A DNA stretch of 64,000 nucleotides from Rubrivivax sp. (GCA_016789865.1 JAEUPC010000061.1:6604-70603); one strand, 5' to 3'; shown: positions 29,576 through 60,149, numbered from the stretch's first letter. Notes: a model not told the origin generated them from the sequence alone. Numbers and translations are program-made.

Positions 29576-30368
<793 letters not shown>

Positions 30369-30378
<10 letters not shown>

Positions 30379-30903: not shown

Positions 30904-32127
30904 TCAGCGCCGGCCCTCGAACAACGAGCGCGCCACGATCTCCTTCATGATCTCGGTGGTGCCGCCGTAGATGCGCTGCACACGCGCATCGACCCAGGCG
31001 CGCGCGATCGGGTATTCGCGCATGTAGCCATAGCCGCCGAACAGTTGCAGGCAGCTGTCGAGCACCTGGAACTGCATCTCGGTGCACCAGTACTTGGCGA
31101 TCGACGCGGTGGCGGTGTCCAGCGTGCCGGCGAGGTGCCGGCGCAGGCACTCGTCGAGAAAGGCGCGCGCCACGCGCGTGTTGGCATGGGCCTCGACGAG
31201 GCGGTGGCGCACCGTCTGCTTGTCGGCCAGCGGCGCACCGAAGGCTTCGCGCTGCATCACCTGCTCGCGCGTCCACGCCACCGCGGCTTCCATCGCGCCC
31301 ACCGCGGTGATGGCCACCAGCAGCCGCTCCTGCGGCAGCTGGCTCATCATGCAGCCGAAGCCGCGGCCCGCCTCACCCAGCAGGTGGTCGCGCGGGATGC
31401 GCAGGTCGGTGAAGAAGAGTTCCGAGGTGTCTTGCGCGTGCATGCCGAGCTTGTCGAGCCGGCGCCCGCGGCTGAAGCCCGCCAGGTGCGTGGGGACCAG
31501 CAGCAAGCTCACGCCGTGCGCGCCACGCGCGGCGTCGGTCTTTGCCGCCAGCAGCAGCAGGTCGCACAGCTGGCCGTTGCTGATGAAGATTTTCTGGCCG
31601 TTGATGCGCCACACCGCCTGCGCGCCCTCGCCCTCGGGCTCGGCGCGCGTGCGCAGCGCCGCAAGGTCGCTGCCGGCGCCCGGCTCGGTCATGCCGATGG
31701 CGGCGATGCATTCGCCGCGGGCCATGCGCGGCAGCCACTGCTGCTTCTGCGCCTCGGTGCCGTAGTGCACGAGGTACGGCGCGACGATGTCCGAGTGCAG
31801 GTAGAACAGCGGCCCGGTGGCGCCGGCGCGCGCCATCTCCTCGGTGACGATGGCGGCGTAGCCGAAGTCGGCGCCGGCGCCGCCGCAGGCCTCGGGCACC
31901 GTCAGGCAAAGCAGGCCCAGTTCACCGGCACGCTGCCACAGCGCTCGCGGCACCTGGCCGTCGCGTTCCCACTGGGCGTGGTGCGGCGTGATCTCCTCGG
32001 CGATGAAGCGGCGCACGGTGGCGCGGAAGGCGGCGTGCTCCTCGGTGGCCAGCGGGGTCGTGGCGGGGTACAGGTCGTCGACGCCTCCGCCTCCGCCCCC
32101 ACCTCCGGTCGACGGCGCGGTGTTCAC
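30904..32127 (-). CDS. Acyl-CoA dehydrogenase (LCAD-like)
   Basis: MTEPGAGSDL, NGQKIFISNG, QLFGGYGYM, RIYGGTTEIMK; GTGA overlap. Confidence 0.93.
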   Translation of the reverse strand: MNTAPSTGGGGGGGGVDDLYPATTPLATEEHAAFRATVRRFIAEEITPHHAQWERDGQVPRALWQRAGELGLLCLTVPEACGGAGADFGYAAIVTEEMARAGATGPLFYLHSDIVAPYLVHYGTEAQKQQWLPRMARGECIAAIGMTEPGAGSDLAALRTRAEPEGEGAQAVWRINGQKIFISNGQLCDLLLLAAKTDAARGAHGVSLLLVPTHLAGFSRGRRLDKLGMHAQDTSELFFTDLRIPRDHLLGEAGRGFGCMMSQLPQERLLVAITAVGAMEAAVAWTREQVMQREAFGAPLADKQTVRHRLVEAHANTRVARAFLDECLRRHLAGTLDTATASIAKYWCTEMQFQVLDSCLQLFGGYGYMREYPIARAWVDARVQRIYGGTTEIMKEIVARSLFEGRR

Positions 32128-33989
32128 GCCGCCTGGCCCACGGGCGCCTGCGCCGCGCCCCCGCCGTACAGCGCCTCGATCGCCACGGCGTACTTCTCGG
32201 CAATGCTCCTGCGCTTGACCTTCATCGTCGCGGTGACCTCGCCGTCGTCGTGGTCGAGTTCCTTGGTCAGCAGGTGGAACCGGCGCACCTGCTGCACCTG
32301 CGGGAAGCGCGCGTTGACGCGGTCGACCTCGGCCTGCACGAGTTCGCGCACGCGCGGGTGCTCGGCGAGGCTGCGGAAATGCGTGTACGCGAGGCTGTGC
32401 TCCTCGGCCCACTTGCCCACGGTGTCGTAGTCGATCTGGATCAGCGCGGCGACGAACGGCCGGCGGTCGGCGACGACGATGGCTTCCTTGACGTAGGCGC
32501 TGAACTTCAGCGCGTTCTCGATTTCGCTGGGCGTGATGTTCTTGCCGCCGGCGGTGATCATGATGTCCTTCTTGCGGTCGACGATGCGGACCTCGTCGCC
32601 ATGCCGCGCGCTTTCTGGGCTCGCCACGCGTTCGGCCACGTCGCCGGTGTGCAAGTAGCCCTCGGCGTCGATGGCCTCGCGCGTGGCCGCTTCGTTGCGG
32701 TAGTAGCCCTTGAACACCGTCGGGCCGCGCACGAGCAACTCGCCGTCGTCGGCGATCTTCAGCTCGACACCCGGGATCGCGCTGCCCACCGTGCCGATGG
32801 GCGACGCGGCGCTGCGCTGCACGGTGGCGACGCCGGCGGTCTCGGTCATGCCGAAGCCCTCGCGGATGGGCACGCCCAGCGCGCGGAAAAAGCGCAGCAT
32901 GTCCGGTGCGATCGGCGCGGCGCCCGACAGCGCCATGCGGCAGCGGGTGAGGCCGATGAAGTTGGTGAGCGCGCGCAGCACGAGCCACCACCACAGCCCG
33001 TGCGTCAGGCGCTGCGCCAGCGTGCGGCGCTCGGGCGGCACGTCGGCAAACGGCAGCGTGGCGGCGAGCGCACGCTCGTAGAGCTTGCGGCGCAGGCCGC
33101 CCGCCTCGCGCACCTTGATCTCGATCGAGGCGTGCAGCTTCTCCCAGATGCGCGGCACGCCGAGGAACAGCGTGGGCGCGATCTCGCGCAAGTCGCCTTG
33201 CACCGTGCGCAGGCTTTCGGCGAAGTTCACCACCGCGCCCGAGCGCAGCGGCAGGTCCACGGTGTAGATCTGCTCGGCCACGTGACAAAGCGGCAGGTAC
33301 GACACGGTGCTGTCGGCGGGTGTGCAGCGGTAGATGGCGTCGGCGCCTCGGGCCATCGCGGCGACGTTGCCGTAGCTCAGCATCGCCGCCTTCGGGCGGC
33401 CGGTGGAGCCGCTGGTGAAGATCATCAGCGCGGTGTCGTCCATGCGCTGGCGTTCGAGGCGCTCGTCGACGATGCGCGGCTTCTCGTGCTCGAACGCCGC
33501 GCCGAGCGCGCTGACCTCCTCGAAGGTCATCAGGTCGGGCACTTCGTAGTGGCGCAGGCCGCGCGGGTCGATGACGACCAGGTGCTTCAGCAGCGGCAGC
33601 CGCTCGCGCACCTCCAGCACCTTGTCGAGCTGCTCCTGGTCTTCGCACACGACGACCACCGCGTCGGAGGCGTGCAGCAGGTACTCCACTTCGGGCGCCG
33701 GTGATGTGGGGTAGACGCCCACCGTCACCGCACCGACCAGCCCGCAGCCCAGCTGCGCGAACACCCACTCCTTGCGGTTCTCGCTGATCACCGCGCAGTG
33801 GCCGCCTTCGGGCAGGCCGAGCTTCACGAGGCCGAGGCCGAAGTGGCGCGCCGCCTGCTCGTACTGCGCCCAGGTCACCGGTTCCCAGATGCCGAAGTCC
33901 TTCTGCCGCAGCGCCACCGCTTCGGGCCGCACCTGTGCCCAGTGGCGCAGCTGCAGCGGCAGCGTGAGGGTGTCGATGGGGGAACTCAT
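32124..33989 (-). CDS. Long-chain acyl-CoA synthetase
   Basis: FTSGSTGRPK, EGFGMTE, TGD, DRKKDIMITAGGKNI. Confidence 0.93.
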   Translation of the reverse strand: MSSPIDTLTLPLQLRHWAQVRPEAVALRQKDFGIWEPVTWAQYEQAARHFGLGLVKLGLPEGGHCAVISENRKEWVFAQLGCGLVGAVTVGVYPTSPAPEVEYLLHASDAVVVVCEDQEQLDKVLEVRERLPLLKHLVVIDPRGLRHYEVPDLMTFEEVSALGAAFEHEKPRIVDERLERQRMDDTALMIFTSGSTGRPKAAMLSYGNVAAMARGADAIYRCTPADSTVSYLPLCHVAEQIYTVDLPLRSGAVVNFAESLRTVQGDLREIAPTLFLGVPRIWEKLHASIEIKVREAGGLRRKLYERALAATLPFADVPPERRTLAQRLTHGLWWWLVLRALTNFIGLTRCRMALSGAAPIAPDMLRFFRALGVPIREGFGMTETAGVATVQRSAASPIGTVGSAIPGVELKIADDGELLVRGPTVFKGYYRNEAATREAIDAEGYLHTGDVAERVASPESARHGDEVRIVDRKKDIMITAGGKNITPSEIENALKFSAYVKEAIVVADRRPFVAALIQIDYDTVGKWAEEHSLAYTHFRSLAEHPRVRELVQAEVDRVNARFPQVQQVRRFHLLTKELDHDDGEVTATMKVKRRSIAEKYAVAIEALYGGGAAQAPVGQAA

Positions 33990-34023
33990 GATTGCGGGGC
34001 AGTGTGCTGCCAGCCAAGCGAAC

Positions 34024-34098
34024 GCCGCGGAACCGGCTTTGCCGGGCCGCTGGCGTTGCCCCCTGGGGGGAGGCGGCCGAAGGCCGCTACGGGGGGGG
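34024..34098. repeat. REP-like palindromic element
   Basis: gccgcggaaccggctttgccgggccgctggc..ccccctggggg..gcggccgaaggccgc stems. Confidence 0.75.
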
Positions 34099-34911
34099 TC
34101 ATGACAACCAGCGCTTGCGGCGCTTGTAGTGCTTCACGTGGCGGAAGCTCGCCAGCTCCGCGCTGCCGTCGCCGTAGCCGAGATAGAAGCGCTGCACGTC
34201 GGGGTCGCGCACGAGCTTGTCGGTGGGGCCGTCGATAACGACCTTGCCGCTTTCCATGATGTAGCCGTACTGCGCGATCTCGAACGCGGCCATCGCGTTC
34301 TGCTCCACCAGCAGCATCGCCACGCCCTGCTCGCGGTTGATGCGGGCGATGATCTCGAAGATGCCCTGCACCACCAGCGGCGCCAGGCCCAGCGAGGGTT
34401 CGTCCAGCAGCATCAGCGCGGGCTTGCCGAGCAGCGCGCGGCCGATGGCCAGCATCTGCTGCTCGCCACCCGAGAGGTAGCCGGCGCGCTGCGCGCGGCG
34501 CTCGGCCAGGCGCGGAAAGTAGTCGTAGATGAGCGCGGTGTCGGCGGCTTTCGGTCCGCCGCGCCCTGTCAATGCATTGGACGCGGCGACGAGGTTCTCG
34601 TCGACGGTGAGGTCTTCGAACACGTGCCGCCCCTCGCGCACGTGGCCGATGCCGCGCCGCGCCAGCAGGTGCGGCGGCACGGCATCGATGCGCTCGCCCT
34701 GGAAGCGGATGGCGCCGCTCTTGATCTCACCCACCTCCAGCGGCAGCAGGCCCGAGATGGCCTTCAGCGTGGTCGTCTTGCCGGCGCCATTGCTGCCCAG
34801 GAGCGCCACGATCTGCCCGGCCGGCACCGCCAGCGACAGCCCGCGCAGCACCTGCACCGAGTGGCCGTAGACCACCTCGATGTTCTCGATGCCGAGCGCG
34901 GGCGGTGTCAT
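34099..34911 (-). CDS. LIV-type ABC ATP-binding protein (LivF-like)
   Basis: GSNGAGKTT, LSGGEQQMLAIGRAL, DEPSLGLAP. Confidence 0.92.
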   Translation of the reverse strand: MTPPALGIENIEVVYGHSVQVLRGLSLAVPAGQIVALLGSNGAGKTTTLKAISGLLPLEVGEIKSGAIRFQGERIDAVPPHLLARRGIGHVREGRHVFEDLTVDENLVAASNALTGRGGPKAADTALIYDYFPRLAERRAQRAGYLSGGEQQMLAIGRALLGKPALMLLDEPSLGLAPLVVQGIFEIIARINREQGVAMLLVEQNAMAAFEIAQYGYIMESGKVVIDGPTDKLVRDPDVQRFYLGYGDGSAELASFRHVKHYKRRKRWLS

Positions 34912-34971
34912 CAGCGTGCTCGTTCCCGGTGAAGCGCACGCGGGTGAGGTGCTTGACATGGCCAGGCGGCC

Positions 34972-35044
34972 GCCGGGGACGCGGCTTTGCCGGTGCGCTG
35001 GCAGCGCCATCTCGAGGGGGAGGCGGCCGCCAGGCCGCTTCGGG
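34972..35044. repeat. REP-like element, degenerate copy
   Basis: ggctttgccgg..gctggc..ggggaggcggccgccaggccgcttcggg, similar to the 34024 copy. Confidence 0.7.
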
Positions 35045-35053
35045 AGTGGGCCA

Positions 35054-36295
35054 TTACGCCGTCTTGATCCAGCCGCTGGCGGGCTGCAGCAGCTTCGACG
35101 TGGCGTCGTAGGTGTAGATGCGGCCGCTCGGAATCTGGTGGCCCTTGAGTGACACCAGCAACCCCGTCACGCCGCCGGTGTCCCAGTGGTCGATGCTTTC
35201 CAGCGCCGCCTTCATGTTCGCTCCGGTCAGCGGCTTGCCGGCCTTCAGCGTGCGTTCGATCACTTCGCTGAAGATCATGCCCACCAGCCAGCCGTGCGTG
35301 TAGAACAGCGGCACGTAGGGCATGTTCGGCCGCGCCTTGGCGGTGAACTCCTTGATCGCCTGCATCGTCGGCGCGCCCTCGGTGTCGTAGCTGTAGCGGT
35401 AGGGCATCACGCCCATCCAGCCCTGGCCGGCGGCGCCCATCGCGTCGACGGTGGTCTTGTCCATGCTCCAGATCGTGCCCATCGGCACCGTGCTCATGCC
35501 GGCCTCGCGCATCTGCTTGATGAACTCGGGGATCGGTGCCAGCACATAACCGTGGAAGATCACGTAGTCCGGCTTGGCGCGGCGCAGCTTGGCCACCTCG
35601 CTGCTCACGTCCACCGCGCCCGGCTTGGTGACGATCTCCTGCACGATCGGGATCTGCAGCGCCTGCGCCTTGGCCTTGATGCCGGGGATGGGGTCGCGGC
35701 CGAACTCGGTGTCGCTGTACACGATGGCGACCGCGGGCTTGCTGGCGCCGCGCGAGGTGCGGTTGATGTACTCGAGCAGGATCTCGCCCATCGCCGTGTA
35801 GGTGGGCCCGGCCATGAAGTAGTAGGGCGCGTTCTTCGGGTCGGCGAGGTCGGAGCTGAAGCTCGGGCTCGAGGTGAGCGTGGTGCCGAGTTGGCTGACT
35901 TCGGCCGCGGCGGCCTTGGCCCAGGCCGTGCTGTCGCCGTAGAACACCGGCGGCTTGTGCGCGCCCATCAGCTTCTTGAAGACGGCCATCGCCTGGTCCA
36001 TCTTGTAGCCACTGTCTTCGCCGATGTAGCGCAGCGTGCGGCCGGCGACGCCCCTCCTGGTTTCGTTGCGCCACTGGCAGTAGTCGCCCAGGCCCTGGTG
36101 CAAGCCCACGCCGGCGAACGCGAACACGCCGGTGATCGGCGGTGCGGCGGCGACGACGATCTCGCCGCTCTGGGCGATGGCCGCGCCCAGCGGCAGCGAA
36201 GACAGCGCGGCGGCGCCGGCCGCGCCGAGGCCGGCACCGACGATGCGGCGGCGAACAGGGTCGCGCAGCGGGTTGCTCAGGTCATCGTGGCTCAT
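35054..36295 (-). CDS. LIV-type ABC substrate-binding protein with Tat signal
   Basis: VRRRIVGAG signal; EDSGYK, DTEFGRDP; AAGGAG RBS. Confidence 0.9.
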   Translation of the reverse strand: MSHDDLSNPLRDPVRRRIVGAGLGAAGAAALSSLPLGAAIAQSGEIVVAAAPPITGVFAFAGVGLHQGLGDYCQWRNETRRGVAGRTLRYIGEDSGYKMDQAMAVFKKLMGAHKPPVFYGDSTAWAKAAAAEVSQLGTTLTSSPSFSSDLADPKNAPYYFMAGPTYTAMGEILLEYINRTSRGASKPAVAIVYSDTEFGRDPIPGIKAKAQALQIPIVQEIVTKPGAVDVSSEVAKLRRAKPDYVIFHGYVLAPIPEFIKQMREAGMSTVPMGTIWSMDKTTVDAMGAAGQGWMGVMPYRYSYDTEGAPTMQAIKEFTAKARPNMPYVPLFYTHGWLVGMIFSEVIERTLKAGKPLTGANMKAALESIDHWDTGGVTGLLVSLKGHQIPSGRIYTYDATSKLLQPASGWIKTA

Positions 36296-36324
36296 CGTCA
36301 GCTCCTTGCGTTGGACGGGAAGGG

Positions 36325-37365
36325 TCAGGCCCGGAAGGGCCACAGGTGGAAGCTCCTGCGCACGCGCCGCCAGATTTCCAGCAGGCCGTGCGGCTCGAAG
36401 ACGAGAAAGCCCATGATCAGGAGGCCGAACACCACCTGCTGCGCGGGGCTGAGCACCTCGGTGGCGCGCGGCGCCCATTGCGAGATGGTGGCCACGCCGC
36501 CGCGCAGCAGCTCGGGCATCAGCGTCATGAACACCGCGCCGAAGATCGTGCCCAGCATGCTGCCCAGACCGCCGACGATGATCGCGGCGAGGTAGAAGAT
36601 GGAAAGCTGCAGCGTGAAGTACTCGGGCGTCATCGCGCGGTAGAAGTAGCCCAGCAGCGCGCCGGCCACGCCGGCGTAGAACGAGCCGATCGCGAACGCG
36701 GCGAGTTTGTAGCGCAGCAGGTCGATGCCCAGCACCTCGGCCGAGATGTCCTTGTCGCGGATGGCGATGAAGGCGCGCCCGACGCGCGTGCGGAAGAGGT
36801 TGCGCCCGCCGATGAGCAGCGCCGCGGCCACCGGCACGATGAGGAAGTACATGCGCGCGTCGTTCTTCAGCTCGAAGCCGAAGACGCTGGCATTGGGCAC
36901 GTTGACTCCGCGCACGCCGCCGGTGACGCTTTCCCACTCGCGGAACACGTAGACCAGCAGGAACTGCGTGGCCAGCGTCGCCACCGCGAGGTACAGGCCC
37001 TTGATGCGCAGGCTGGGCAGCCCGACCACGAGGCCCAGCGCCGCGGCCATCAAGCCCGCCGCCGGCAACGTGACGAAGAACGGCATGCCCTGCCTGGCCA
37101 GCCACGCCGCGGTGTAGCAGCCCACGCCCATGAACGCCGCGTGGCCCAGCGAGATGAGCCCGGTGTAGCCGGTCATGATGTTCAGCCCCGCCGCGGCGAT
37201 GCAGTGGATGCCGACGATGCACGCCAGGCTGACCAGGTAGCCGTTGGCGGTGAACGGAAACACCAGCAGCGCGACCACCAGCCCGACGAGCCACGTCTGC
37301 TGCACGCGCGTGGGCCAGATCGCCTCGTCGTGCGCGTAGCTCTCGCGGTAGTCGCCGATGCGCAT
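36325..37365 (-). CDS. LIV-type ABC permease (LivM-like)
   Basis: GYTGLISLGHAAF, LRIKGLYLAVATL, IIVGGLGS. Confidence 0.92.
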   Translation of the reverse strand: MRIGDYRESYAHDEAIWPTRVQQTWLVGLVVALLVFPFTANGYLVSLACIVGIHCIAAAGLNIMTGYTGLISLGHAAFMGVGCYTAAWLARQGMPFFVTLPAAGLMAAALGLVVGLPSLRIKGLYLAVATLATQFLLVYVFREWESVTGGVRGVNVPNASVFGFELKNDARMYFLIVPVAAALLIGGRNLFRTRVGRAFIAIRDKDISAEVLGIDLLRYKLAAFAIGSFYAGVAGALLGYFYRAMTPEYFTLQLSIFYLAAIIVGGLGSMLGTIFGAVFMTLMPELLRGGVATISQWAPRATEVLSPAQQVVFGLLIMGFLVFEPHGLLEIWRRVRRSFHLWPFRA

Positions 37366-37394
37366 GTGTCGGTGTTCCTGCTTCGGGCCGGTGC

Positions 37395-38291
37395 TCAGAG
37401 CCGCTCGATCTGCCGCGTGCCGAACAGGCCGTAGGGCCGGATCAGCAGGATCACGAGCACGGTGGCGTAGGGCACGATGTCGCGCACCTTGCCGCCCAGG
37501 TACGCGGCGGTGAGGCTTTCGAGCAGCCCGACGATGAGCCCGGCGACGATGGCGCCGGCGATGCTGTCGAGCCCGCCGAGGATGATGACCGCCAGCACCC
37601 CGAGCGCCGCGCTGCCCAGCGCCGGCGACAGGCTCGTCATCGATGCCACCACGATGCCGGCCATGGCGCCGACGACGCCGGCGAACATCCAGGTCAGCGC
37701 CTGCGTGCGCCGCACGTCGATGCCCATCACGTAGGCGGTAATGGGGTCGCTGGCCGCGGCGCGCATGGCGATGCCGGTGCGCGAGTAGCGGAAGTACAGC
37801 GTGAAGGCGGTGATGACCGCGGCCGCGAGCACGAAGCTCCACACCACCTGCCCGGGAATGAGGATGTCGCCGGGCGTGAACGGCTTGCGCGGCAGCACCT
37901 GCGGCATCTCGAGGTTCTGACCGCCCCACGTGCCTTCGACCAGGCCATGCAGCGCGCTGGCCAGGCCGATGGTGGCCATCAGCACCGAGATCACCGGCTG
38001 GCCCGAAAGCGGCCTGAGCAGCGTGCGTTCGATCAACGCCGCCACCGCGGCCACGGCCGCCAGCGTGAGCGCCAGCGCCACGCCCATCGGCAGCTTCCAC
38101 ATCACGTCGGCGGTGTAGAAGAAGTAGGCGCCCAGCATCATGAACTCGCCCATCGCGAAGTTGATGACGCCCGTGCCCTTGTAGATAAGCACGAAGCCCA
38201 GCGCGATGAGCGCCAGCAGCCCGCCCGAGAGCAGGCCGATGGCCGAGTATTCGGCCAGCGCGACCCAGTCGAAGCCGGCGGCGCTGTTCAT
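37395..38291 (-). CDS. LIV-type ABC permease (LivH-like)
   Basis: ALGFVLIYKGTGVINFAMGE, ILGGLDS, LIRPYGLFG. Confidence 0.92.
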   Translation of the reverse strand: MNSAAGFDWVALAEYSAIGLLSGGLLALIALGFVLIYKGTGVINFAMGEFMMLGAYFFYTADVMWKLPMGVALALTLAAVAAVAALIERTLLRPLSGQPVISVLMATIGLASALHGLVEGTWGGQNLEMPQVLPRKPFTPGDILIPGQVVWSFVLAAAVITAFTLYFRYSRTGIAMRAAASDPITAYVMGIDVRRTQALTWMFAGVVGAMAGIVVASMTSLSPALGSAALGVLAVIILGGLDSIAGAIVAGLIVGLLESLTAAYLGGKVRDIVPYATVLVILLIRPYGLFGTRQIERL

Positions 38292-39103
38292 GCTTGCGCC
38301 ACCTGCCGCGCCGCGGCCTGCTCGCCGAGGTAGGCGCGCACGACCTCGGGGTTGTGCCGCACGTCGGCCGGCGTGCCCTCGCCGATGACTTCGCCGAAGT
38401 TGAGCACCACCACGTGGTTGGCGATGTCCATCACCAGGCCCATGTCGTGCTCGATCAGCAGCACCGTGATGCCGCGCTCCTCCTGGATGTCGAGGATGAA
38501 ACGCGCCATGTCCTCGGTTTCTTCGCGGTTCATGCCGGCCACGGGCTCGTCGAGCATCAGCACCTTGGGCCGCATGGCCAGCGCGCGCGCGAGCTCGACG
38601 CGCTTTTGCAGCCCGTAGGGCAGCGCCGCCACCGGCTGGTGGCGCACATGGTCGATCTCGAGGAAGTCGACCACCTCGCGCTCGATCTCGCGGCGCAGCG
38701 CCATCTCTTCGCGCTGCGCGGGGCCGAGGTACCACCAGGCCGTCAGCGGGTTGGCGGCCAGGCGGCTGTGGCCGCCGAGCTTGATGTTGTCCAGCACGCT
38801 CATGCCGCGAAACAGCGCCACGTTCTGGAACGTGCGCGCCAGGCCCATCGCCGCGCGGCGGGCCGGGCCGATGCGCGTGATGTCGCGCCCCTCGAAGACG
38901 ATGCGCCCCTGCTGCGGGCGGTAGAAGCCCGAGACGGTGTTGAACAGGCTCGTCTTGCCCGCGCCATTGGGGCCGATGATCGCGGTGATCTCGCCCGCGC
39001 GCGCACAAAGAGACACGCCGGCCAGCGCCTTGATGCCGCCGAAGCCGAGGTGCACGCCGTCGGCCTGCAGCAGCGGCGCGGAGGAGGTCGGCGATGCGGT
39101 CAT
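38288..39103 (-). CDS. LIV-type ABC ATP-binding protein (LivG-like)
   Basis: GPNGAGKT, RTFQN, LPYGLQKRVELARAL, IEHDMGLV. Confidence 0.92.
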   Translation of the reverse strand: MTASPTSSAPLLQADGVHLGFGGIKALAGVSLCARAGEITAIIGPNGAGKTSLFNTVSGFYRPQQGRIVFEGRDITRIGPARRAAMGLARTFQNVALFRGMSVLDNIKLGGHSRLAANPLTAWWYLGPAQREEMALRREIEREVVDFLEIDHVRHQPVAALPYGLQKRVELARALAMRPKVLMLDEPVAGMNREETEDMARFILDIQEERGITVLLIEHDMGLVMDIANHVVVLNFGEVIGEGTPADVRHNPEVVRAYLGEQAAARQVAQA

Positions 39104-39247
39104 CGGGGCTCGGCGGGTCGGGGCAGCCGACGAAAGAGCAGCCGGCGGTGCAAGTGCTGCGGGCATTGTTCGGAGGGTGCCGTGCGCCGGCCATCATCGT
39201 TAGCCCTAGCGGCGCCTGCCGGGTGCTGGCGTCGACGCCGGGCGCAC

Positions 39248-39302
39248 GCCGCGAGCCTGCCACGAGCCCGCCACGAGCCTGCCACTGGCCCGTCACGAGC
39301 CC
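39248..39302. repeat. 11-bp tandem repeat (GCCACGAGCCY x5)
   Basis: gccgcgagcct-gccacgagccc-gccacgagcct-gccactggccc-gtcacgagccc. Confidence 0.8.
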
Positions 39303-39340
39303 GCCGCGCGTTGCCCTCGGGCGCGAGCCTCATCGTGCCT

Positions 39341-40606
39341 TCATGCGTGATGCTGCCCCGTGAGATAGACCGTGCCGGTGAAGCTGGAGACCGGCCGCCC
39401 GTCGCTGCGCGAGACGTCGACGCGGTAGACGGCGAGCTTGCGGCCGCGCGAGACCTCGTGCGCGCGGGCCGACAGCGTCTCGCCGACGGCGGCCGCCTGC
39501 TGGTACGTGATGTGCGCGTCGATGCCGGCGGCCACGGTGCCGCGCGAATTGGCGGCCAGCCCGAACGCGGTGTCGGCCAGCGCGAAGATGACTCCGCCGT
39601 GGCAGGTGCCGTTGAAGTTGATGTGCTCGGGGCGCAGCGTGACAGCAACTTCCGCCTCGCCCGGGCCGCCGCGCACGCAGAGGATGCCGGTGGCGCGGGC
39701 GAAAGGGTCGCTGGCGGCGAGGTGGAACACGCGGGCCGCCGCCGCCGCTGACTTCGCGTCGGCGTGCAGCCGCCGCCCGTGGCCGGCGTGGCTGGCGTGT
39801 TCGAGCGTGCGCTCGACCAGGGCTGCGACCCCGTCGCCCGCGGTCGCCTGCACGCGCAGCACCGGCACCTTCCAGGCCGCAGCGGCCGGCGGGTGGCGCA
39901 ACTGCAGCATCTCGCGCAGGTCGCGCTCGGTGGGCTCGGCGCCGGGCAGGTCGGCTTTGCTCACCACCAGCAGGTCGGCGATCTCCAGCAGCCCGGCCTT
40001 GCTGGCCTGCACCGCGTCGCCCAGGCCCGGCGGGCAGACGACGACGCGCGTGTCGGCCACGCTCATGATCTCCACTTCGGACTGGCCGGCGCCCACCGTC
40101 TCGACGATCACGGTGTCGAAGCCCGCGGCATCGAGCACGTCGACGATGGCGCGCGTGGTCGGTGACAGGCCGCCGAGGTGCCCGCGCGAGGCGACGGAGC
40201 GGATGAACACATCGGCATGTGCGCCGTGTTCGCCCATGCGCACGCGGTCGCCGAGCACGGCGCCGGCGCTGAGCGGGCTCGAAGGATCGACCGCCACCAC
40301 GCCGACCCGGCGCCCGCGCGCGAGCAGCTCGCCCAGCAGCGAATGCACCAGCGTCGACTTGCCGGCGCCCGGCGCGCCGGTGATGCCGATGACGTGGGCG
40401 CGCCCGAGGTGCGGGGCCAGCGCGGCGCCGAGCGCGGCGGCGTCGGCCGCACCTTGTTCGATGTGGCTGATGGCGCGCGCCACCGCGCGGCGGTCGCCGC
40501 GCAGCACGCCGCGATGCAGGCCGGCCACGCCGGGGGGCGGCGACACGGGCGCCAGGGCCGCATCAGCGGCCGGATGCGCTGCGTGGCGCGTGGCGGCGCT
40601 GCTCAC
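39341..40606 (-). CDS. meaB: MeaB/ArgK mutase GTPase chaperone fused to a PaaI/PaaD-like hotdog thioesterase
   Basis: [32 protein letters not shown], then [24 protein letters not shown] in the same frame. Confidence 0.88.
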
Positions 40607-42303
40607 ACAAAGGCCTGCACGTGGCCGAAACCGAGTTCGCGCCTGAGCGTCGCGCAGATCTCGCCATGGGTGCAGCCGGCCTCGGCGGCCTCGACGACGC
40701 GGCCGAAGACGTTGTCCTGTGGGTCGTTCGCCGCGCGGGCCAGCGCGTCGAGCGCGCTTTGCACGTCGGCCTGCGAACGCGCGGCCTTGAAGGCGCGCAA
40801 GTCCTCGAGGTGCGCGAGCATCGTCGCGCGATCCGGCCGCGCATTGATCGGCCGCGCGCTGCGGTCTTCGTCCATCTCGTAGGCGTTGACGCCCACCAGC
40901 GTCTGCTCGCCGCTGTCGATGCGCGCCTGGAAGCGCCGCGCCGACTCGCCGATCATGCGCTGCACGAGGCCCGACTCGACCGCCTTGTACATGCCGCCGG
41001 CGTCCTGCACGAGGCCCATCACGCGCTCGATCTCGGCCTGCATCCGGTCGGTGAGCGCCTCGACGTAGTGGCTGCCGCCCAGTGGGTCGATGACGTCGGT
41101 GAGATGCGCCTCCTCGCGCAGGATGTTCTGCGTGGCCACCGCGATGCGCGCGCCGAACTCGCTGGGGCAGCTCAGGGCCTCGTCGTAGGCGTCGGTATGC
41201 AGCGACTGAAGGCCGCCGAAGATGCCGGCCATCGCCTGCACCGCCACGCGCGCCACGTTGTTCAGCGGCTGCTGGCGCGTCAGGTCCACGCCCGAGGTCT
41301 GGCCGTGGAACTTGAAGCGCCACGACTTCGGGTCCTTCGCACCCAGGCGCTCCTTCGTCACCTTGGCCCAGATGCGGCGCGCGGCGCGGAACTTGGCGAC
41401 CTCTTCGAAGAAGCTGATCGAGATGTCGAAGAAGAAGGTGAAACGCGGCAGGAATGCGTCGGGGTCCAGGCCGCGGGCGATGCAGTCCTCGGCGTTCTGG
41501 ATCGCGGTGCTCAGCGTGAAGGCCACCGCCTCGGCCGGCGTGGCGCCGGCCTGCTGCATGTGCTGGCCCACCACCGACATCGGGTTCCACTTCGGCACGA
41601 AGCGGTTGCAGAACTGGATGTGATCGCCAAGGATGCGCCGCGCGCCGGGCAGCGCGATGCGAAAGAACATGTGGTTGGCGACGCAGTGGCTGAGGTAGTC
41701 GCTCTGGTTGCTGGTGCCGCTGACCTGCCGCCAGTCGGTGCCGCGCTTCCTGGCCGCGGCCAGCATGAAGGCCAGCAGCGTGAACGGGCTCGGGTCGTTC
41801 AGCGCGCACGAGGTGGCGCCGAGGTCCACCCCTTGCAGCGCGCGGTCCATGTGCCCGGCGGTGTTGACCACCGTGCCGCAGGTGCCCAAGAGCTCGACAT
41901 GCGACTCGTCCATGTCGACGCCGCGGAACACCGAGTTGCACGGGATCAGCGACACCGCGGTGGCGCCGGCACCCAGCACGTCGAGCAGGCGGGCGTTGTA
42001 CTCGGCGGGGGTGCCCAGGCCGATGAGCTGCCGCTGCGTCCAGGTGCGGCCGCGGTGCATGGTGGCGTAGATGCCGCGCGTGTAGGGCGCCTGGCCGGGC
42101 AGGCCTTGTTCGCTTTCGCGTGCGGGGTGCCAGTCGGCGGCGGTGTACAGCGGCTTGATCGGTACGCCCGAGCGGTTGAACACCGGACGGTCGGCGCCGA
42201 TCTGCACCGCGTATTCGTGCTGCCAGCGCGCCAGCGCCGGGTCGGCGTCGCCGGTGGCGCCGTCGGCCACCGAGGCGAGCGGGACGTCGAAGGGCTTGTT
42301 CAT
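40603..42303 (-). CDS. B12-dependent acyl-CoA mutase large subunit, pivalyl-CoA-mutase-like
   Basis: [13 protein letters not shown] (Leu at the MCM Tyr89 position), SHCVAN (Asn at Arg207), [24 protein letters not shown]. Confidence 0.88.
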
Positions 42304-42366
42304 CGTGGAAGCTCCGGAAGGCGGAAGGCGGAAGGCGAGGATGCCGGATGCCGGCCGCGCCGCCGG

Positions 42367-42807
42367 TCAGACGGTGGCGCGCCGTGCACGCACGCGGGCG
42401 GCCAGCGCGCGCACACCGGCGGCGATGTCGGGCAGCGGCGTGCCCGGATGGAACACGCGCGCCACGCCGGCGGCGAGCAGCATCTGCTCGTCCTCGTCGG
42501 GCACGATGCCGCCGACGATGACCGCGACGTCGCCGAGCTCGGCCGCGCGCAGGGCCTCCATCAGCTTGGGCACGATGAGGTGATCGGTGGCCAGCGAGCT
42601 GATGCCGATGACGTCGACATCCTCCTCGGTGGCCAGCTTCACCACGGTGGCGATCTCCTGCCACGGCGGCGTGTAGATGACCTCCATGCCGGCGTCGCGC
42701 AGCGCGGCGGCCACCACGCGGCTGCCGCGGTCGTGGCCGTCGAAGCCGATCTTGGTGACCAGCACCTTGGGGATGATGGAAGGGGCGGCGGCGGTGTCGG
42801 CGTTCAT
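42367..42807 (-). CDS. Acyl-CoA mutase small (cobalamin-binding) subunit
   Basis: DGHDRG, GISSL, VGG, FHPG. Confidence 0.93.
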   Translation of the reverse strand: MNADTAAAPSIIPKVLVTKIGFDGHDRGSRVVAAALRDAGMEVIYTPPWQEIATVVKLATEEDVDVIGISSLATDHLIVPKLMEALRAAELGDVAVIVGGIVPDEDEQMLLAAGVARVFHPGTPLPDIAAGVRALAARVRARRATV

Positions 42808-43562
42808 GGCGCGGTGATCTCCTGGTTCTGGCGCAAGAGGGCGGTGAACTGGCGCGCCAGCGCCCGCGGCGACGATGTGCCGTCGGCGCGGTACCAGTTC
42901 TGCGCCCAGTTCAGCGCGCCCAGCAGCATCAGCCGCAAGGCGCGGCGGTCGGTGCGGCGCGGCAGCGGCAAGGCGGCGACGAGCGCGGCCCACAGCGCTT
43001 CGTAGCGGTCGCGCTGCGCCACCAGGCGCGCGGCGGCGCCGGGCACATCGGCGGGGCGCACGCGCACCACCACGCGCGCGTAGTCGTCGTCGCGCAGGAT
43101 GGCCTCGAGGTGCGCCACACAGGCGGCTTCGAGCCGCTCCCATGGGTCGGCAAGCGGCAGCACGGCGGCTTGCGCCGCGCTGCAGATCTGCTCGCAGCCG
43201 CGCAGGTAGACGGCGACCAGCAGGTCCTCCTTGGTGGCGAAGTGGCAGTACAGCGAGCCGGGCAGCATGCCCGCGGCGCCGGCGATCTCGCGCACCGAGG
43301 TGCCTTCGAAGCCCTGGCGGCAGAACAAGCGCGCCGCGGCGTCCAGCACCAGCGGCGCGCGGCTGTCGGTGTGGGCTTGCCGCGAGGCCTTCTCCTTGGA
43401 CTGCCGCAACGCCGGCGTGGGTGCGGCGGCTGCGTGTGCGACCCGCGCCGCGGTGCGCACCGGCGCAGCGCGCGTCACCGCGTGTGCGGAAGGGTGTGCG
43501 GCCGGGCGTGCGGCCGGGGTTGGGGTGCGTGCGGGGGCCTGGCGGGCGAGGCTGCGCGGCAT
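42804..43562 (-). CDS. TetR-family regulator (start uncertain)
   Basis: LDAAARLF..GFEGTSVREIA..GSLYCHFATKEDL. Confidence 0.9.
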   Translation of the reverse strand: MPRSLARQAPARTPTPAARPAAHPSAHAVTRAAPVRTAARVAHAAAAPTPALRQSKEKASRQAHTDSRAPLVLDAAARLFCRQGFEGTSVREIAGAAGMLPGSLYCHFATKEDLLVAVYLRGCEQICSAAQAAVLPLADPWERLEAACVAHLEAILRDDDYARVVVRVRPADVPGAAARLVAQRDRYEALWAALVAALPLPRRTDRRALRLMLLGALNWAQNWYRADGTSSPRALARQFTALLRQNQEITAP

Positions 43563-43627
43563 GGCTCGAACGATGACTGCTGTGGAGTCCCCGGGTCGGC
43601 GGCGCCGCGGGGTGCAGGCCAATATAC

Positions 43628-43641
43628 CAAACAACCGTTTG
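43628..43641. promoter_or_regulatory. Palindromic TetR (PsrA-like) operator in the divergent promoter
   Basis: CAAAC-aacc-GTTTG inside an AT-rich patch. Confidence 0.65.
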
Positions 43642-43747
43642 TTAAAATGCTCCGCGTCGCCCTATCATCGGCGCCATCCCCCCGAACCGACCGCTCGGGT
43701 CCTGTGCGTCACCAGCCACCGGCCTCACGGGGCCGGCGCATCTCGCC

Positions 43748-44953
43748 ATGAGCTTCACCGACATCGTGCTCGCCGCCGGCGCCCGCACGCCCTTCGGCGA
43801 CTTCGGAAAGTCGCTGCGCGATGTGCCGCTGTGCGACCTCGGCGTGCACGTCGTCGAGGCCAGCCTCGCGCGCGCCGGGTTGAGGGGCGCGCAGGTCGAC
43901 CACCTCGTGTTCGGCAACACCGCGCCGGTGGACCACGACGGCCTGTTCGTCAGCCGCAAGATCGCGCTGCTGGCCGGGCTGCCCGAAGACAGCGCGGCGC
44001 TGGGCGTGGTGCGCGCCTGCGGCACGGGTTCGCAGGCCATCGTCAGCGCCGCGCAGCAGATCATGAGCGGCCACAGCGAGATCGCCGTCGCTGCCGGCGG
44101 CGAGAACTATTCGCGCGTGCCGTACCTCGCGCATCACGTTCGCTGGGGTGCGCAGCGCGGGCCGTTCGAGTTCGTCGACGGCCTGGACTACATCTACCGC
44201 TGCCCGTTCACCAAGGAGCTGATGGGCGACACGGCGGAGAACCTCGCCGCTCGCTTCGGCTACACGCGCGAGGCGATGGACGCCTGGGGGCTGATGAGCC
44301 AGCAGCGTGCCGGCGCGGCGACGCAAAGCGGCTTCCTGGCGCGGCAGATCGCGCCGATCGACGTGCCGCAGCCGGTGAAGGGCCAGCCGCCGACGCGCCG
44401 CTTCGAGCACGACGAGTTCCCGCGCCCGCAGATCACGGCCGCGAAGCTGGCGAGTCTGAAGCCGGCGTTCCGCAAGGACGGCCAGGGCAGCGTCACCGCG
44501 GGCAACTCCAGCGGCGTCACCGATGGCGCCGCGGCGCTGGTGGTGGCCAGCGCCGCCGCGGCGCGGCGCGCAGGCCTGCGGCCCGAAGCGCGCCTGGTCG
44601 ACTGGGCCGTGGTCGGCGTGGAGCCGGCGATCATGGGCGCCGGCCCCGTGCCGGCGATCCGCAAGCTGCTCGCACGCACGCGGCTCGCGGTGAGCGACAT
44701 CGACTGTTTCGAGATCAACGAAGCCTTCGCGGTGGTGAACCTGCACGCCGAGCGTGAGCTGGGCATCCCGCGCGAGCGCACCAATCTCTACGGCGGCGGC
44801 ATCAGCATCGGTCACCCGCCCGGCGCCACCGGGCTGCGCATGACCATCACTGCGATGCACCACCTGGCCGACACCGGCGGGCGCTACGCGGTGGTCAGCA
44901 TGTGCCTGGGTTCCGGCATGGGGATGGCCACGCTGATCGAGCGGCTGGGCTGA
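43748..44953 (+). CDS. Acetyl-CoA C-acyltransferase (thiolase)
   Basis: RACGTG, TAGNSSG, NEAF, GHPPGATG, CLGSGMG. Confidence 0.94.
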   Translation: MSFTDIVLAAGARTPFGDFGKSLRDVPLCDLGVHVVEASLARAGLRGAQVDHLVFGNTAPVDHDGLFVSRKIALLAGLPEDSAALGVVRACGTGSQAIVSAAQQIMSGHSEIAVAAGGENYSRVPYLAHHVRWGAQRGPFEFVDGLDYIYRCPFTKELMGDTAENLAARFGYTREAMDAWGLMSQQRAGAATQSGFLARQIAPIDVPQPVKGQPPTRRFEHDEFPRPQITAAKLASLKPAFRKDGQGSVTAGNSSGVTDGAAALVVASAAAARRAGLRPEARLVDWAVVGVEPAIMGAGPVPAIRKLLARTRLAVSDIDCFEINEAFAVVNLHAERELGIPRERTNLYGGGISIGHPPGATGLRMTITAMHHLADTGGRYAVVSMCLGSGMGMATLIERLG

Positions 44954-52897: not shown

Positions 52898-52936
52898 TGA
52901 CGCGTGACGCGTCACGCGTCACGCGTCACGCGATCA
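52898..52936. repeat. Perfect 24-bp palindrome built from 7-bp tandem repeats
   Basis: tgacgcgtgacgcgtcacgcgtca (52898-52921) followed by more cgcgtca units. Confidence 0.85.
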
Positions 52937-53425
52937 CGACACCACGAACGCCGCCGCCCCGGTGGCGATCAGCTCGCCTTGGTCATTGTGCAGCGCCATC
53001 TGCGCCGAGCCGATGCGCCCGCCCAGCCGCGTGACCTTGGCGGTGGCGTCGAAGTGCCTGCCCAGCCCCTGGCGCAGGAAGTCGATTCGCAGGTCGATGG
53101 TGCCCATGCGTGCGAAGCGGTGCGTCACCTGCACGGCGCTTTCGTGGGGGTGGCGCTCGGCGATGGCGACCATCAGCGCCAGGCCGGCCATCGCGTCCAG
53201 CACCGAGGAGATCACGCCGCCGTGCAGGCGGCCATAGGCGAAGTGGCCGACGAGTTCGGGCTTCATCTCGAAGCGGCCGCGCACATCACCGGCTTGCACC
53301 GACACCACCTTCAGCCCGAGCACTTTGTTGAAGCTGATGTGGTGCTCGAACATCTCGCGCACGGCGCGCTCGAAGCGCGCCTGCTCCTCGGCGCTGCGCG
53401 TGGCCGCTGGCGTGGCGCCGGTCAT
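52934..53425 (-). CDS. Hotdog thioesterase family protein
   Basis: LHGGVISSVLD, TIDLRIDFLR. Confidence 0.88.
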   Translation of the reverse strand: MTGATPAATRSAEEQARFERAVREMFEHHISFNKVLGLKVVSVQAGDVRGRFEMKPELVGHFAYGRLHGGVISSVLDAMAGLALMVAIAERHPHESAVQVTHRFARMGTIDLRIDFLRQGLGRHFDATAKVTRLGGRIGSAQMALHNDQGELIATGAAAFVVS

Positions 53426-54414
53426 GCCTGGGCCGGCGCTGCCTTCAGGCCCAGGCGTGCGCGGGTCTCGGCCGGGCTGGCGATCTCCCGGCCGCAGTCG
53501 CGAGCCACGCGCGCCAGCGCCTCGATGAGCTGGCCGTTGCCGCGGGCCCGCTCACCGCTGGGCAGGTAGAAGGTGTCCTCCAGGCCGGTGCGCAGCATGC
53601 CGCCGAGCTCGGCGGTGCGCCGATGCACGGGCCAGATCTCGGCGCGACCGATGAGCGTGGTCTGCCACACCGCTTCTTTCGGTGCGTAGCGCGGCAGCAA
53701 GGCGAGCAGGTCGGCATCGGCGGGCATGCCGCTGGCCACGCCCATCACGAAGTTGACCTCGGGCACGAATGTCCGCCCCCTGGTCGCGGCTTCGCCGCGC
53801 CCGCCCCCCGAGGGGGACGCGCCGGCTTGGGACGGCCCGGCGCCGGCGCCGCTGATCATGCCGGCCTTCAGGTACATGCCCACGCTGCGCACGATGCCGA
53901 CATCGAAGCACTCGAACTCCGGGTGCGTGTCGGTCTCGGCCATCGCATCGAGCATCTGCTTGATCTTGGCCACCGGGTTGTCGAACACCATCGGTGGCCA
54001 GGCCCAGCTGCCGTCTTCCTTGATCTTGAGGTAGTTCAGGCTGCCGGCATTGCATGCCGCGGACTCGGGCTTGACGCGCTGGATGCAGGCGATGGGGCCC
54101 GAGACATCCTTGCCGACGACGCCGGTGGTGAGGTTGATGATGACGCCCGGGCACGCGGCGCGGATGGCATTCACCACGGCCTCGGCGACATCGGGGTCCC
54201 AGCTCGGCATGTGGCCCATGCCCGGCTCCTGGCTGCGCAGGTGCACGTGCATGATGCTGGCGCCGGCGTTGAAGGCATCGCGCGCCTCGGCGGCCATCTG
54301 CGCGGGCGTCACCGGCACGGGGTGCTGCTTGGGGTCGGTGAGCACGCCGGTGAGCGCGCAGGTGAGGATGGCCTTGTCGGTGGAACCCGCGGCGGCGTTC
54401 GTGTTGTTCGTCAT
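53422..54414 (-). CDS. Beta-keto acid cleavage enzyme (BKACE/DUF849) with an in-frame REP-like insert
   Basis: ILTCALTG, PVTP, HVHLR, PEFECFD, RTGLED. Confidence 0.9.
   Translation of the reverse strand: MTNNTNAAAGSTDKAILTCALTGVLTDPKQHPVPVTPAQMAAEARDAFNAGASIMHVHLRSQEPGMGHMPSWDPDVAEAVVNAIRAACPGVIINLTTGVVGKDVSGPIACIQRVKPESAACNAGSLNYLKIKEDGSWAWPPMVFDNPVAKIKQMLDAMAETDTHPEFECFDVGIVRSVGMYLKAGMISGAGAGPSQAGASPSGGGRGEAATRGRTFVPEVNFVMGVASGMPADADLLALLPRYAPKEAVWQTTLIGRAEIWPVHRRTAELGGMLRTGLEDTFYLPSGERARGNGQLIEALARVARDCGREIASPAETRARLGLKAAPAQA
53772..53846 (-). repeat. REP-like element inserted in-frame in BKACE
   Basis: gccgggccgtcccaagcc..ccccctcgggggg..gcggcgaagccgc..ggggg; resembles the intergenic REP-like elements. 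Confidence 0.65.
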
Positions 54415-56348: not shown

Positions 56349-56463
56349 CAGTGGCTCGCGCAGGGGCCGCCTGCCCGCGCTTCGCGCGGCATGCGGGTTG
56401 GCTGCGCCGCAGCGGCCCCGTGACCGCTGTCTCCCCGATTCGCAGCGAGGATCTCGCGAAGGC

Positions 56464-57303
56464 TCACGGCGCCGCGCCCTCCGGCGCGGGCGGACCTTCA
56501 GGCACCCAACTTGCCTTGCGCTTGTGGAGGAATGCCATCGTGCCTTCCACGCCCTCGGGCCCGAGCACGGCGTTCGAGAACATCTGCGCCGCCTCGGGCA
56601 CCAGCGCCGCCGGCGCCGTGAAGCGCGCCTTGGCCAGCAACGCCTTGGTGGCCGCCAGTGCGCCTGGCGCGCAGGCGAGGACCTGCGTCACGATGCGGCC
56701 CAGCGCCCAGTCGAGCGCTTCGGCGTCGTGTACTTCGTGCACGAGGCGCAGCCGCAGCGCCTCTTGCGACTCGACCTTCGCGCCGGTGACGGCCAGGCGC
56801 TTGGTCTCGGCGTAGCCGATGCGTTCGACGAGAAACGGCCCCACCTGCGCCGGCAGCAGGCCGAGGCCCGTCTCGGGCAGGCGGAACACCACGCTGTCGT
56901 CGGCAATGCAGATGTCGCTCACGCAGGCCAGGCCGAAGCCGCCGCCCATCACCGTGCCCTGCAGCATGGTGATGATCGCCAGGCCGGTGTTCGCGTAGGC
57001 CACGCACAGTTCGCCGAAGGTGGCGTTGGTCGTGGCGAGCGCGGCAGGGTCTTCGGCCAGGCGGCCCCGCGCCGCGGCCATGTCCTTGATGTCGCCGCCG
57101 GCGCAGAAGTGGCCACCGGCGCCGCGCAGAACCAGCACCCGGGTGTGCCCGTCCATCTCGGCCTGCGCCAGCACGGCGCGCAGCTCGCGCACCATCTGCA
57201 GCGACATGGCATTGCGCACGTCGAGCCGGTTGAGCGTGACGTGCAGCACCGGGCCGTCGCGCTTCAGCGCGAGGGTCTTGAAGTCGGCCAGCTCGACGCT
57301 CAT
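56464..57303 (-). CDS. atuE: Isohexenylglutaconyl-CoA hydratase-like crotonase
   Basis: FCAGGDIKDM, GGGFGLACVSD, LPETGLGLLPAQ. Confidence 0.75.
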   Translation of the reverse strand: MSVELADFKTLALKRDGPVLHVTLNRLDVRNAMSLQMVRELRAVLAQAEMDGHTRVLVLRGAGGHFCAGGDIKDMAAARGRLAEDPAALATTNATFGELCVAYANTGLAIITMLQGTVMGGGFGLACVSDICIADDSVVFRLPETGLGLLPAQVGPFLVERIGYAETKRLAVTGAKVESQEALRLRLVHEVHDAEALDWALGRIVTQVLACAPGALAATKALLAKARFTAPAALVPEAAQMFSNAVLGPEGVEGTMAFLHKRKASWVPEGPPAPEGAAP

Positions 57304-57310
57304 CGCGGCC

Positions 57311-58468: not shown

Positions 58469-58513
58469 GAGGGTGTCTCCGGAAGGAATCAGCACAGGCA
58501 AGCCGCGGCGCGC

Positions 58514-60124: not shown

Positions 60125-60149
60125 GCGCAAGCAGGCGATGGTAGGCGGG

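Follow-up and report, generated by a model that had tools for sequence, protein, structure and literature searches.

A Rubrivivax operon that probably encodes a two-subunit pivalyl-CoA mutase together with an importer, a ligase and an acyl-CoA dehydrogenase

Ordinary beta-oxidation cannot pass a quaternary carbon, so that acids carrying one, such as pivalate, neo-acids and fragments of branched fuels and terpenoids, tend to persist in the environment. Pivalyl-coenzyme A (pivalyl-CoA) mutase (PCM) is a known way round this block. The reference system is the two-subunit, adenosylcobalamin (AdoCbl)-dependent PCM of Xanthobacter autotrophicus Py2. Its locus holds genes for a TetR-family regulator (Xaut_5045), the small and large mutase subunits (Xaut_5044 and Xaut_5043), MeaB (Xaut_5042), a PaaD-type thioesterase (Xaut_5041), a PaaK-type ligase (Xaut_5040), a 659-aa ligase (Xaut_5039) and a five-gene LIV-type ATP-binding cassette (ABC) importer (Xaut_5038 to Xaut_5034). 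An operon of this kind in a 64,000-nucleotide stretch of Rubrivivax sp. DNA (GCA_016789865.1, JAEUPC010000061.1:6604-70603; the whole stretch is called the window below) is described here. Judged by sequence comparison, it is very probably an ortholog of the Xanthobacter PCM system with a complete catabolic operon built around it. There is nothing new in the mutase as such, and the operon is a well-equipped but ordinary member of the characterised PCM family. Specific to the locus are the full outfit of importer, ligase, long-chain acyl-CoA dehydrogenase (LCAD)-type enzyme and thiolase, the fusion of the mutase chaperone to a thioesterase, and a recurrent linkage to an Atu-type operon.

A pivalate cluster of Thauera humireducens PIV-1, which Jacoby et al. 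are said to have described in 2022, reportedly leads from a pivalate-CoA ligase through a B12-dependent pivalyl-CoA mutase into the leucine/isovalerate route. The likeness of that cluster to the present operon is one of concept.

The host is a Rubrivivax-like metagenome-assembled genome of the Burkholderiales, a betaproteobacterium despite the 72% G+C of the window. At this composition spurious open reading frames (ORFs) are many, so genes were placed by a frame plot of third-position GC (GC3) and then checked against Pfam. Eleven co-oriented minus-strand genes run from 43634 down to 30904, in the order tetR, mutase small subunit, mutase large subunit, meaB-thioesterase, five-gene LIV-type importer, ligase and acyl-CoA dehydrogenase; a thiolase gene diverges from tetR on the plus strand (Table 1). 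An earlier note on this DNA had claimed such a run from tetR to the acyl-CoA dehydrogenase with a divergent thiolase, and the frame plot and Pfam bear it out, with the correction that the chaperone gene of the earlier list is a MeaB-thioesterase fusion. The tetR stop and small-subunit start overlap as ATGA, and three further pairs of genes adjoin directly: large subunit and meaB, ATPase G and first permease, and ligase and dehydrogenase. Only two gaps within the operon are sizeable, ~172 nt from meaB to the gene for ATPase G and 107 nt from the gene for ATPase F to the ligase gene. The start of tetR is uncertain, with candidates from 43409 to 43634 and a coding signal that fades at ~43400-43480. 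A scan for terminators gave no more sites than shuffled sequence.

Counterparts in the Xanthobacter locus were found for both mutase subunits, MeaB, the thioesterase, TetR, the ligase and the importer genes. Pairwise identity is highest for the small subunit (73%), large subunit (66%) and MeaB (64%), lies at 54-56% for the ATPases and 47% for TetR, and is lower for the thioesterase (40%), permeases (39%), ligase (33%) and binding protein (25%). Common to both loci are the split subunits, a large subunit with the Leu/Asn pair, SL(I/L)PC and GQH discussed below, the order TetR-small-large-MeaB, a PaaI-type thioesterase, a LIV-type ABC importer and a ligase of the same class of ~620-660 aa. The loci differ in the thioesterase, which is a separate gene in Xanthobacter and MeaB-fused in the window, and in the PaaK-type second ligase, which is present in Xanthobacter and absent here. 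In the window the importer precedes the ligase, and an LCAD-type dehydrogenase and a divergent thiolase are added. Whereas the Xanthobacter locus is plasmid-borne, the present one is apparently chromosomal, has a betaproteobacterial host and shares its window with an Atu-type operon.

Within the active site, the large subunit carries the motifs WTQRQLIG (Leu93) and SHCVAN (Asn210). In phmmer alignments to solved structures the Leu93 column holds Ile in 2-hydroxyisobutyryl-CoA mutase (HCM; RQIAG) and Tyr in human and mycobacterial methylmalonyl-CoA mutase (MCM; RQYAG), and the Asn210 column holds Gln in HCM (MAQKEY) and Arg in MCM (MVRNTY). IcmF sequences, the host genome's own copy (locus L004) included, show Phe/Gln at the two columns. 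Leu at about 93 and Asn at about 210 had been proposed from reading the sequence, and this placement is recovered in the alignments to solved HCM and MCM, to Xaut_5043 and among 36 sequences; the signature table given with it (Tyr/Arg in MCM, Phe/Gln in isobutyryl-CoA mutase (ICM), Ile in HCM) also holds at the aligned columns. The pocket departs from MCM, HCM and ICM at two further places. SLIPCNS replaces xxFDxxT, with Ile120 as the equivalent of HCM Asp117 and Pro121-Cys122 after it, and GQH (Gln247-His248) replaces GYH (MCM Tyr243-His244). In the alignments Leu93, Asn210, SL(I/L)PC and GQH are invariant across the PCM family, Xaut_5043 included. Near the pocket, the protein has Ile120, NSV at 123-125, V209 and M212 where the Xanthobacter/Sphingobium subclade has Leu, CSG, I and Q, respectively. 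The small subunit carries the His-on motif DxHxxG as DGHDRG at residue 23, and the P-loops are intact, that of MeaB, encoded immediately downstream of the large subunit, reading GAPGAGKS.

As in PCM, the mutase is split between a TIM-barrel protein of ~560 aa (here 566) and a B12-binding protein of ~140 aa (here 146), and the large subunit groups with the reference enzyme at 66% identity, against 40% or less to any other class. UniProt, by exact look-up, names Xaut_5043 (A7IQE5) 'Pivalyl-CoA mutase large subunit' and Xaut_5044 its small subunit. A tblastn search of a plasmid collection was bimodal, with six records at 59-68% identity and the remainder at 40% or less; pXAUT01 of X. autotrophicus Py2 is among the six (66%), its gene being Xaut_5043, with Xaut_5044 as the small subunit. 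In a large protein collection, the closest proteins to the large subunit, at 77-92% identity, belong to Rubrivivax, Ramlibacter, Rhodoferax and other Burkholderiales, and one relative of 80% identity is labelled 'pivalyl-CoA mutase large subunit' by the Joint Genome Institute (JGI). An NCBIfam profile search of the large subunit returned generic mutase models only and no specific one. A quick IQ-TREE run on 36 barrel domains (from related loci, plasmid records and sister-genome paralogs, with no HCM-type sequence among them) gathered the 18 Leu/Asn sequences into one long-stemmed clade (SH-aLRT 100) that excludes the Tyr/Arg and Phe/Gln sequences. Tree and alignment together set the large subunit apart from MCM and IcmF, HCM being compared by solved-structure alignment only; no Ile/Gln (HCM) mutase sequence turned up among the sampled genomes. 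The assignment to PCM made in the earlier note is supported by the 66% and 73% identity to Xaut_5043 and Xaut_5044, the common pocket motifs, the Leu/Asn clade and the synteny.

Three other classes were considered for the mutase and rejected. MCM was set aside on its Tyr89/Arg207 pair, at whose columns Leu and Asn are found. ICM and IcmF, marked by Phe/Gln, were likewise set aside on the Leu/Asn found instead. IcmF resembles the present enzyme in the radical 1,2-shift of a thioester carbon on an uncharged branched acyl-CoA, and a weak pivalyl-CoA mutase activity has been attributed to it. It differs in its Phe/Gln signature, in being a fused protein and in its identity of only ~29-33%; the host genome's own IcmF lies on another contig. 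HCM, as HcmAB of Aquincola tertiaricarbonis (PDB 4r3u), is the best solved-structure match (1.5e-105) and has the same split architecture and a MeaB-type chaperone. In the alignment to 4r3u, however, its Ile90, Asp117 and Gln208 correspond to Leu93, Ile120 and Asn210, and HCM keeps the FD and GYH motifs.

Table 1. Positions of the operon genes, the divergent thiolase and the neighbouring Atu-type operon in the window
Feature	Position (strand)	Length	Domains or models	Identity to Xanthobacter counterpart
TetR-family repressor	42804..43478 (-)		Pfam TetR_N, TetR_C_24	47% (Xaut_5045)
Mutase small subunit, B12-binding	42367..42807 (-)	146 aa	Pfam B12-binding	73% (Xaut_5044)
Mutase large subunit	40603..42303 (-)	566 aa	Pfam MM_CoA_mutase (7e-165)	66% (Xaut_5043)
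MeaB + PaaI-type hotdog thioesterase fusion	39341..40606 (-)	421 aa	Pfam MeaB (residues 41-283), 4HBT (330-403)	
ABC ATPase, LivG-like	38288..39166 (-)		Pfam ABC_tran, BCA_ABC_TP_C	54% (Xaut_5038)
ABC permease, LivH-like	37395..38291 (-)		Pfam BPD_transp_2	39% (Xaut_5037)
ABC permease, LivM-like	36325..37365 (-)		Pfam BPD_transp_2	39% (Xaut_5036)
Periplasmic substrate-binding protein	35054..36295 (-)		Pfam Peripla_BP_6	25% (Xaut_5035)
ABC ATPase, LivF-like	34099..35010 (-)		Pfam ABC_tran	56% (Xaut_5034)
Acyl-CoA ligase	32124..33989 (-)	621 aa	Pfam AMP-binding, AMP-binding_C_3	33% (Xaut_5039)
LCAD-type acyl-CoA dehydrogenase	30904..32127 (-)		All three acyl-CoA dehydrogenase Pfam domains	
Divergent thiolase, BktB/acetoacetyl-CoA type	43748..44953 (+)		Pfam Thiolase_N, Thiolase_C	
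Atu-type operon (context): short-chain dehydrogenase/reductase (SDR), carboxyltransferase, dehydrogenase, hydratase, biotin carboxylase, BKACE, thioesterase	52934..61052 (-)		NCBIfam	

A scan of species-representative genomes gave 393 stretches with a relative, and the locus comparisons cover the best 80 of these 393, all from Burkholderiales. The order TetR-small-large-MeaB is present in essentially all sufficiently long loci. The importer-ligase-LCAD block of the window type is found only in L007, L009, L011, L016, L025, L035 and L058, at 65-93% identity. It lies downstream of meaB in the window, L007, L009, L011 and L058, and upstream of tetR in two Ramlibacter loci, L016 and L025 (the latter from the cultured R. 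lithotrophicus RBP-1); the occurrence of the same genes in a different position argues for a functional module. Some loci (L007, L025) have an extra SDR gene between ligase and dehydrogenase. Others carry a Xanthobacter-like version of importer and ligase (ATPases ~54%, ligase 34-40% identity). L006, the closest relative (92% mutase identity), has no such block; its meaB is followed directly by the two genes that border the block in the window. These two ORFs, at 30369-30815 (-) and 29335-30282 (-), have no Pfam or NCBIfam match and stand directly after meaB in L006, L008 and L010, identifying the 8.3-kb block as DNA that was either inserted or deleted. Importer, ligase and dehydrogenase form an accessory block, and the PCM cassette as a whole is patchy, accessory and often plasmid-borne. 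In a family sample of one genome per genus, 150 genera in all, an ortholog was found in only one other genome and not in the genome of the same genus; the sample includes an unpublished genome (G145) with an MCM-like match only, on which no claim rests.

The C-terminal arm normal for MeaB is missing, and the reading frame continues into a hotdog thioesterase of PaaI type (4HBT). The fusion is present in 43 of the 80 related Burkholderiales loci, while in Xanthobacter MeaB (Xaut_5042, 64% identical) and the thioesterase (Xaut_5041, 40%) are encoded by separate overlapping genes. Upstream of tetR lies an imperfect palindrome, CAAACGGTTGTTTG (43628..43641), that is a candidate TetR operator. The site is conserved in L006 and L011, and in L009 takes the form of a perfect palindrome, CAAACAATTGTTTG. 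Part of it is shared with a promoter-like site (43639-43668) directed towards the thiolase gene, and the palindrome could reasonably serve as the TetR operator for both divergent units.

The neighbouring Atu-type operon was identified by its carboxyltransferase, which scores 720 bits against the beta subunit of geranyl-CoA carboxylase (GCC; 5ikl_B) versus 530 bits against that of methylcrotonyl-CoA carboxylase (MCC; 3u9r_B), and by its AtuB-, AtuD-, AtuE- and AtuF-like partner genes. In common with the Pseudomonas Atu/Liu systems it has AtuB-, C-, D-, E- and F-like genes and a GCC-type beta subunit. It differs from them in ending with BKACE (DUF849) and hotdog thioesterase genes and in having neither AtuA nor a lyase gene, neither of which was found within the window. 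To our knowledge, descriptions of the Atu/Liu systems include no linkage to a PCM operon. Among the relatives this linkage takes two forms. Atu-like genes lie upstream, on the same strand as the PCM core, in the Rubrivivax-type loci L006, L010, L013 and L021, and immediately downstream and convergent in the Ramlibacter-type loci L014, L023 and L031 and partly in L015 and L018. The BKACE and thioesterase ending is kept in L006 (2-6622), L010 (519-8637) and L014 (12935-20217). No second MCC/GCC-type carboxylase was found in the assembled genome, which is 77% complete.

As regards the direction of flux, the regulator, the thioesterase and the hand-over to the Atu enzymes, we infer the following route. 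TetR would bind the CAAAC..GTTTG palindrome between tetR and the thiolase gene and would probably be released by the acid or its CoA ester. Pivalate, or a closely related carboxylic acid whose alpha-carbon is quaternary, would enter through the LIV-type importer and be converted to its CoA thioester by the ligase. The mutase, its B12 cofactor loaded and guarded by MeaB, would then carry out a radical shift in which the thioester carbon leaves the quaternary carbon for a methyl carbon. The product would be a 3-methyl-branched acyl-CoA, which would be isovaleryl-CoA if the substrate is pivalyl-CoA, and the dehydrogenase, of LCAD/isovaleryl-CoA dehydrogenase (IVD) type, would yield a 3-methyl-2-enoyl-CoA. 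A mutase that turns a 2,2-dimethylacyl-CoA into a 3-methylacyl-CoA makes a carboxylase route necessary for passing the 3-methyl branch. The Atu-type operon is a likely sink for the 3-methyl-branched acyl-CoA, its carboxylase, hydratase and cleavage genes removing the methyl branch, and the thiolase would complete the breakdown. The MeaB-fused thioesterase probably frees CoA from thioesters that cannot be processed.

Several points weigh against an orthologous PCM in a complete catabolic operon. About 60 of the 80 PCM loci consist of the four-gene core only, among unrelated neighbours (2-oxoacid:ferredoxin oxidoreductase, Lon, EamA, LysR), and the core may also serve a role that needs no importer. 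In the window the Atu operon lies ~9 kb from tetR, with unrelated genes between. At 77% completeness, a separate liu cluster may have been missed. The status of Xaut_5043 and Xaut_5044 as a reference PCM comes from the UniProt name, in agreement with the PCM that Kitanishi, Cracan and Banerjee reportedly characterised in 2015.

The size of the substrate was also considered. The earlier note had called the ligase and the dehydrogenase long-chain in type and had proposed larger gem-dimethyl or neo-acids in place of pivalate. The best solved match of the dehydrogenase is human LCAD (8w0t; 3.6e-123, 415 bits), against ~1e-70 for isovaleryl-CoA dehydrogenases. Matches to the short- and medium-chain acyl-CoA dehydrogenases (SCAD and MCAD) are weaker than those to isovaleryl-CoA dehydrogenases. 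The LCAD-type motifs LPQERL and IYGGT are both present, and they mark the LCAD/IVD arrangement of the catalytic base, with Glu on helix G and Gly at the position of MCAD Glu376. The ligase carries TSGSTGRPK, and its closest NCBIfam model is FadD11 (NF038343) at 399 bits against a cut-off of 950, a resemblance only. The long-chain label thus stands for both enzymes as family resemblance and falls well short of model membership for the ligase. The best solved matches of the thiolase are acetyl-CoA acetyltransferase and BktB (1e-90 to 1e-92), and a thiolase of 85-89% identity holds the same divergent position in L009 and L011. Solved-structure searches gave no close relative of the ligase and no informative relative of the binding protein, and nothing informative on chain length from the ligase, binding protein or thiolase.

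Substrates larger than pivalate are plausible on these sequences, with hints on both sides, and longer neo-acids as the main physiological substrates are possible yet rather unlikely. Under that proposal, 2,2-dimethyl acids of C6 and above would become 3-methylacyl-CoAs and enter the LCAD and Atu enzymes. The LCAD-type rather than IVD-type dehydrogenase is consistent with it, as are the long-chain-like architecture of the ligase, the extra SDR between ligase and dehydrogenase in L007 and L025, and the geranyl-CoA-type carboxylase nearby, which acts on long 3-methyl-enoyl-CoAs and whose linkage to PCM recurs in two gene orders. The low identity to Xanthobacter of the binding protein and ligase (25% and 33%), against 66% for the mutase, would also fit a change of substrate. 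However, the Xanthobacter locus has an importer and ligase of the same class, and close relatives of Xaut_5039 are automatically named 'long-chain fatty acid-CoA ligase' in some records; with an importer and a long-chain-like ligase in the reference PCM locus too, those parts alone cannot point to a different substrate. In its pocket motifs the mutase hardly differs from the enzyme characterised on pivalyl-CoA, the thiolase is of short-chain (BktB/acetoacetyl) type, the ligase is far below the FadD11 cut-off, and the block is absent from L006. Since 3-methylcrotonyl-CoA is also a substrate of geranyl-CoA carboxylase, the Atu linkage is compatible with pivalate too, and as the only MCC/GCC-type carboxylase found in the genome the Atu enzyme may simply serve the isovalerate/isovaleryl-CoA route.

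In its fullest form, the proposal would have a sublineage of Burkholderiales in which the PCM core was joined, in at least two independent gene orders, to the importer-ligase-LCAD block and the Atu operon, making a complete and so far undescribed route for quaternary-carbon acids longer than pivalate; this too is tentative and has the odds against it. Such a route would lead from 2,2-dimethylacyl-CoA through 3-methylacyl-CoA and 3-methyl-2-enoyl-CoA to carboxylation, hydration and cleavage. Candidate substrates would be 2,2-dimethyl acids derived from terpenoids, carotenoids or fuels, and the chaperone-fused thioesterase would guard the CoA pool.

Improbable by comparison is a core that acts mainly on internal metabolites, interconverting leucine-derived isovaleryl-CoA and pivalyl-CoA, with the thioesterase releasing pivalate as overflow or starter unit and the importer block as a later addition. 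The PCM reaction is reversible, the thioesterase is conserved and often MeaB-fused, and at most loci neither ligase nor importer accompanies TetR, both mutase subunits and MeaB, whether a thioesterase is present or not. Yet in the window the mutase is co-oriented and tightly packed with importer, ligase and dehydrogenase, and accompanied by the thiolase, which is a catabolic layout; TetR control is typical of inducible catabolism, and making pivalate brings no apparent benefit. Slightly less probable still is a drift of the Burkholderiales subclade to a related substrate, for instance a hydroxylated or dicarboxylic gem-dimethyl acyl-CoA such as 3-hydroxypivalyl-CoA or 2,2-dimethylsuccinyl-CoA, as might be read from the near-pocket differences (Ile120, NSV, V209, M212), the divergence of the binding protein and the SDR that some relatives have in the block, since the pocket has no Arg/Tyr for a carboxylate and Ile in place of HCM Asp117 for a hydroxyl, and the signature residues are invariant across the clade.

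A PCM that works on pivalate or a close relative is the preferred reading, and the operon shows that in Burkholderiales of fresh water and soil this enzyme comes together with genes for taking up, activating and further oxidising its substrate. If the substrate range exceeds pivalate, such clusters would mark organisms that clear a wider class of recalcitrant branched acids, and their enzymes could be used for making or breaking gem-dimethyl carbon skeletons. The locus is a good system for testing the substrate range of PCM, and the cultured R. lithotrophicus RBP-1 (L025) carries the same block, with mutase, ligase and dehydrogenase 78%, 77% and 75% identical, respectively.

Additional observations were made on the surroundings and relatives of the operon. 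A MerR-family regulator gene followed by a second LCAD-like dehydrogenase gene, its product 50% identical to the dehydrogenase of the operon, lies at 61506-63166 (+) and continues into L086; a thiolase-like gene follows the pair beyond the window edge. The pair (61.5-63.2 kb) was considered as liuR-liuA and rejected, the dehydrogenase being LCAD-like and not IVD-like. Unusual mutase paralogs occur in sister genomes (L091, L092 and L093). The one in L091 (G026:C2:444500-446400) is 13 kb from that genome's PCM and has Tyr/Arg with LD and AH replacing FD and YH, and that in L093 is extremely divergent, with Leu/Ala, GD and YF. We know of no class that L091 or L093 fits.

A gene for a 1186-aa 2-oxoacid:ferredoxin oxidoreductase (TPP_enzyme_C, POR, DUF6537), found at L067:387-3947 and in eight other loci, all of the 70-75% identity group, lies ~5 kb upstream of the PCM core and is oriented oppositely to it. 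On pXAUT01 (L001:1-10287) the reference PCM locus lies directly beside epoxyalkane/coenzyme M genes (2-hydroxypropyl-CoM lyase, SDRs, phosphosulfolactate synthase). A plasmid of Sphingobium sp. YC-XJ3 (L105:7744-24959) has two copies of the PCM cassette, complete with divergent thiolase and AMP-binding ligase, and transposase genes of IS6100 and ISSp1 lie between the copies.

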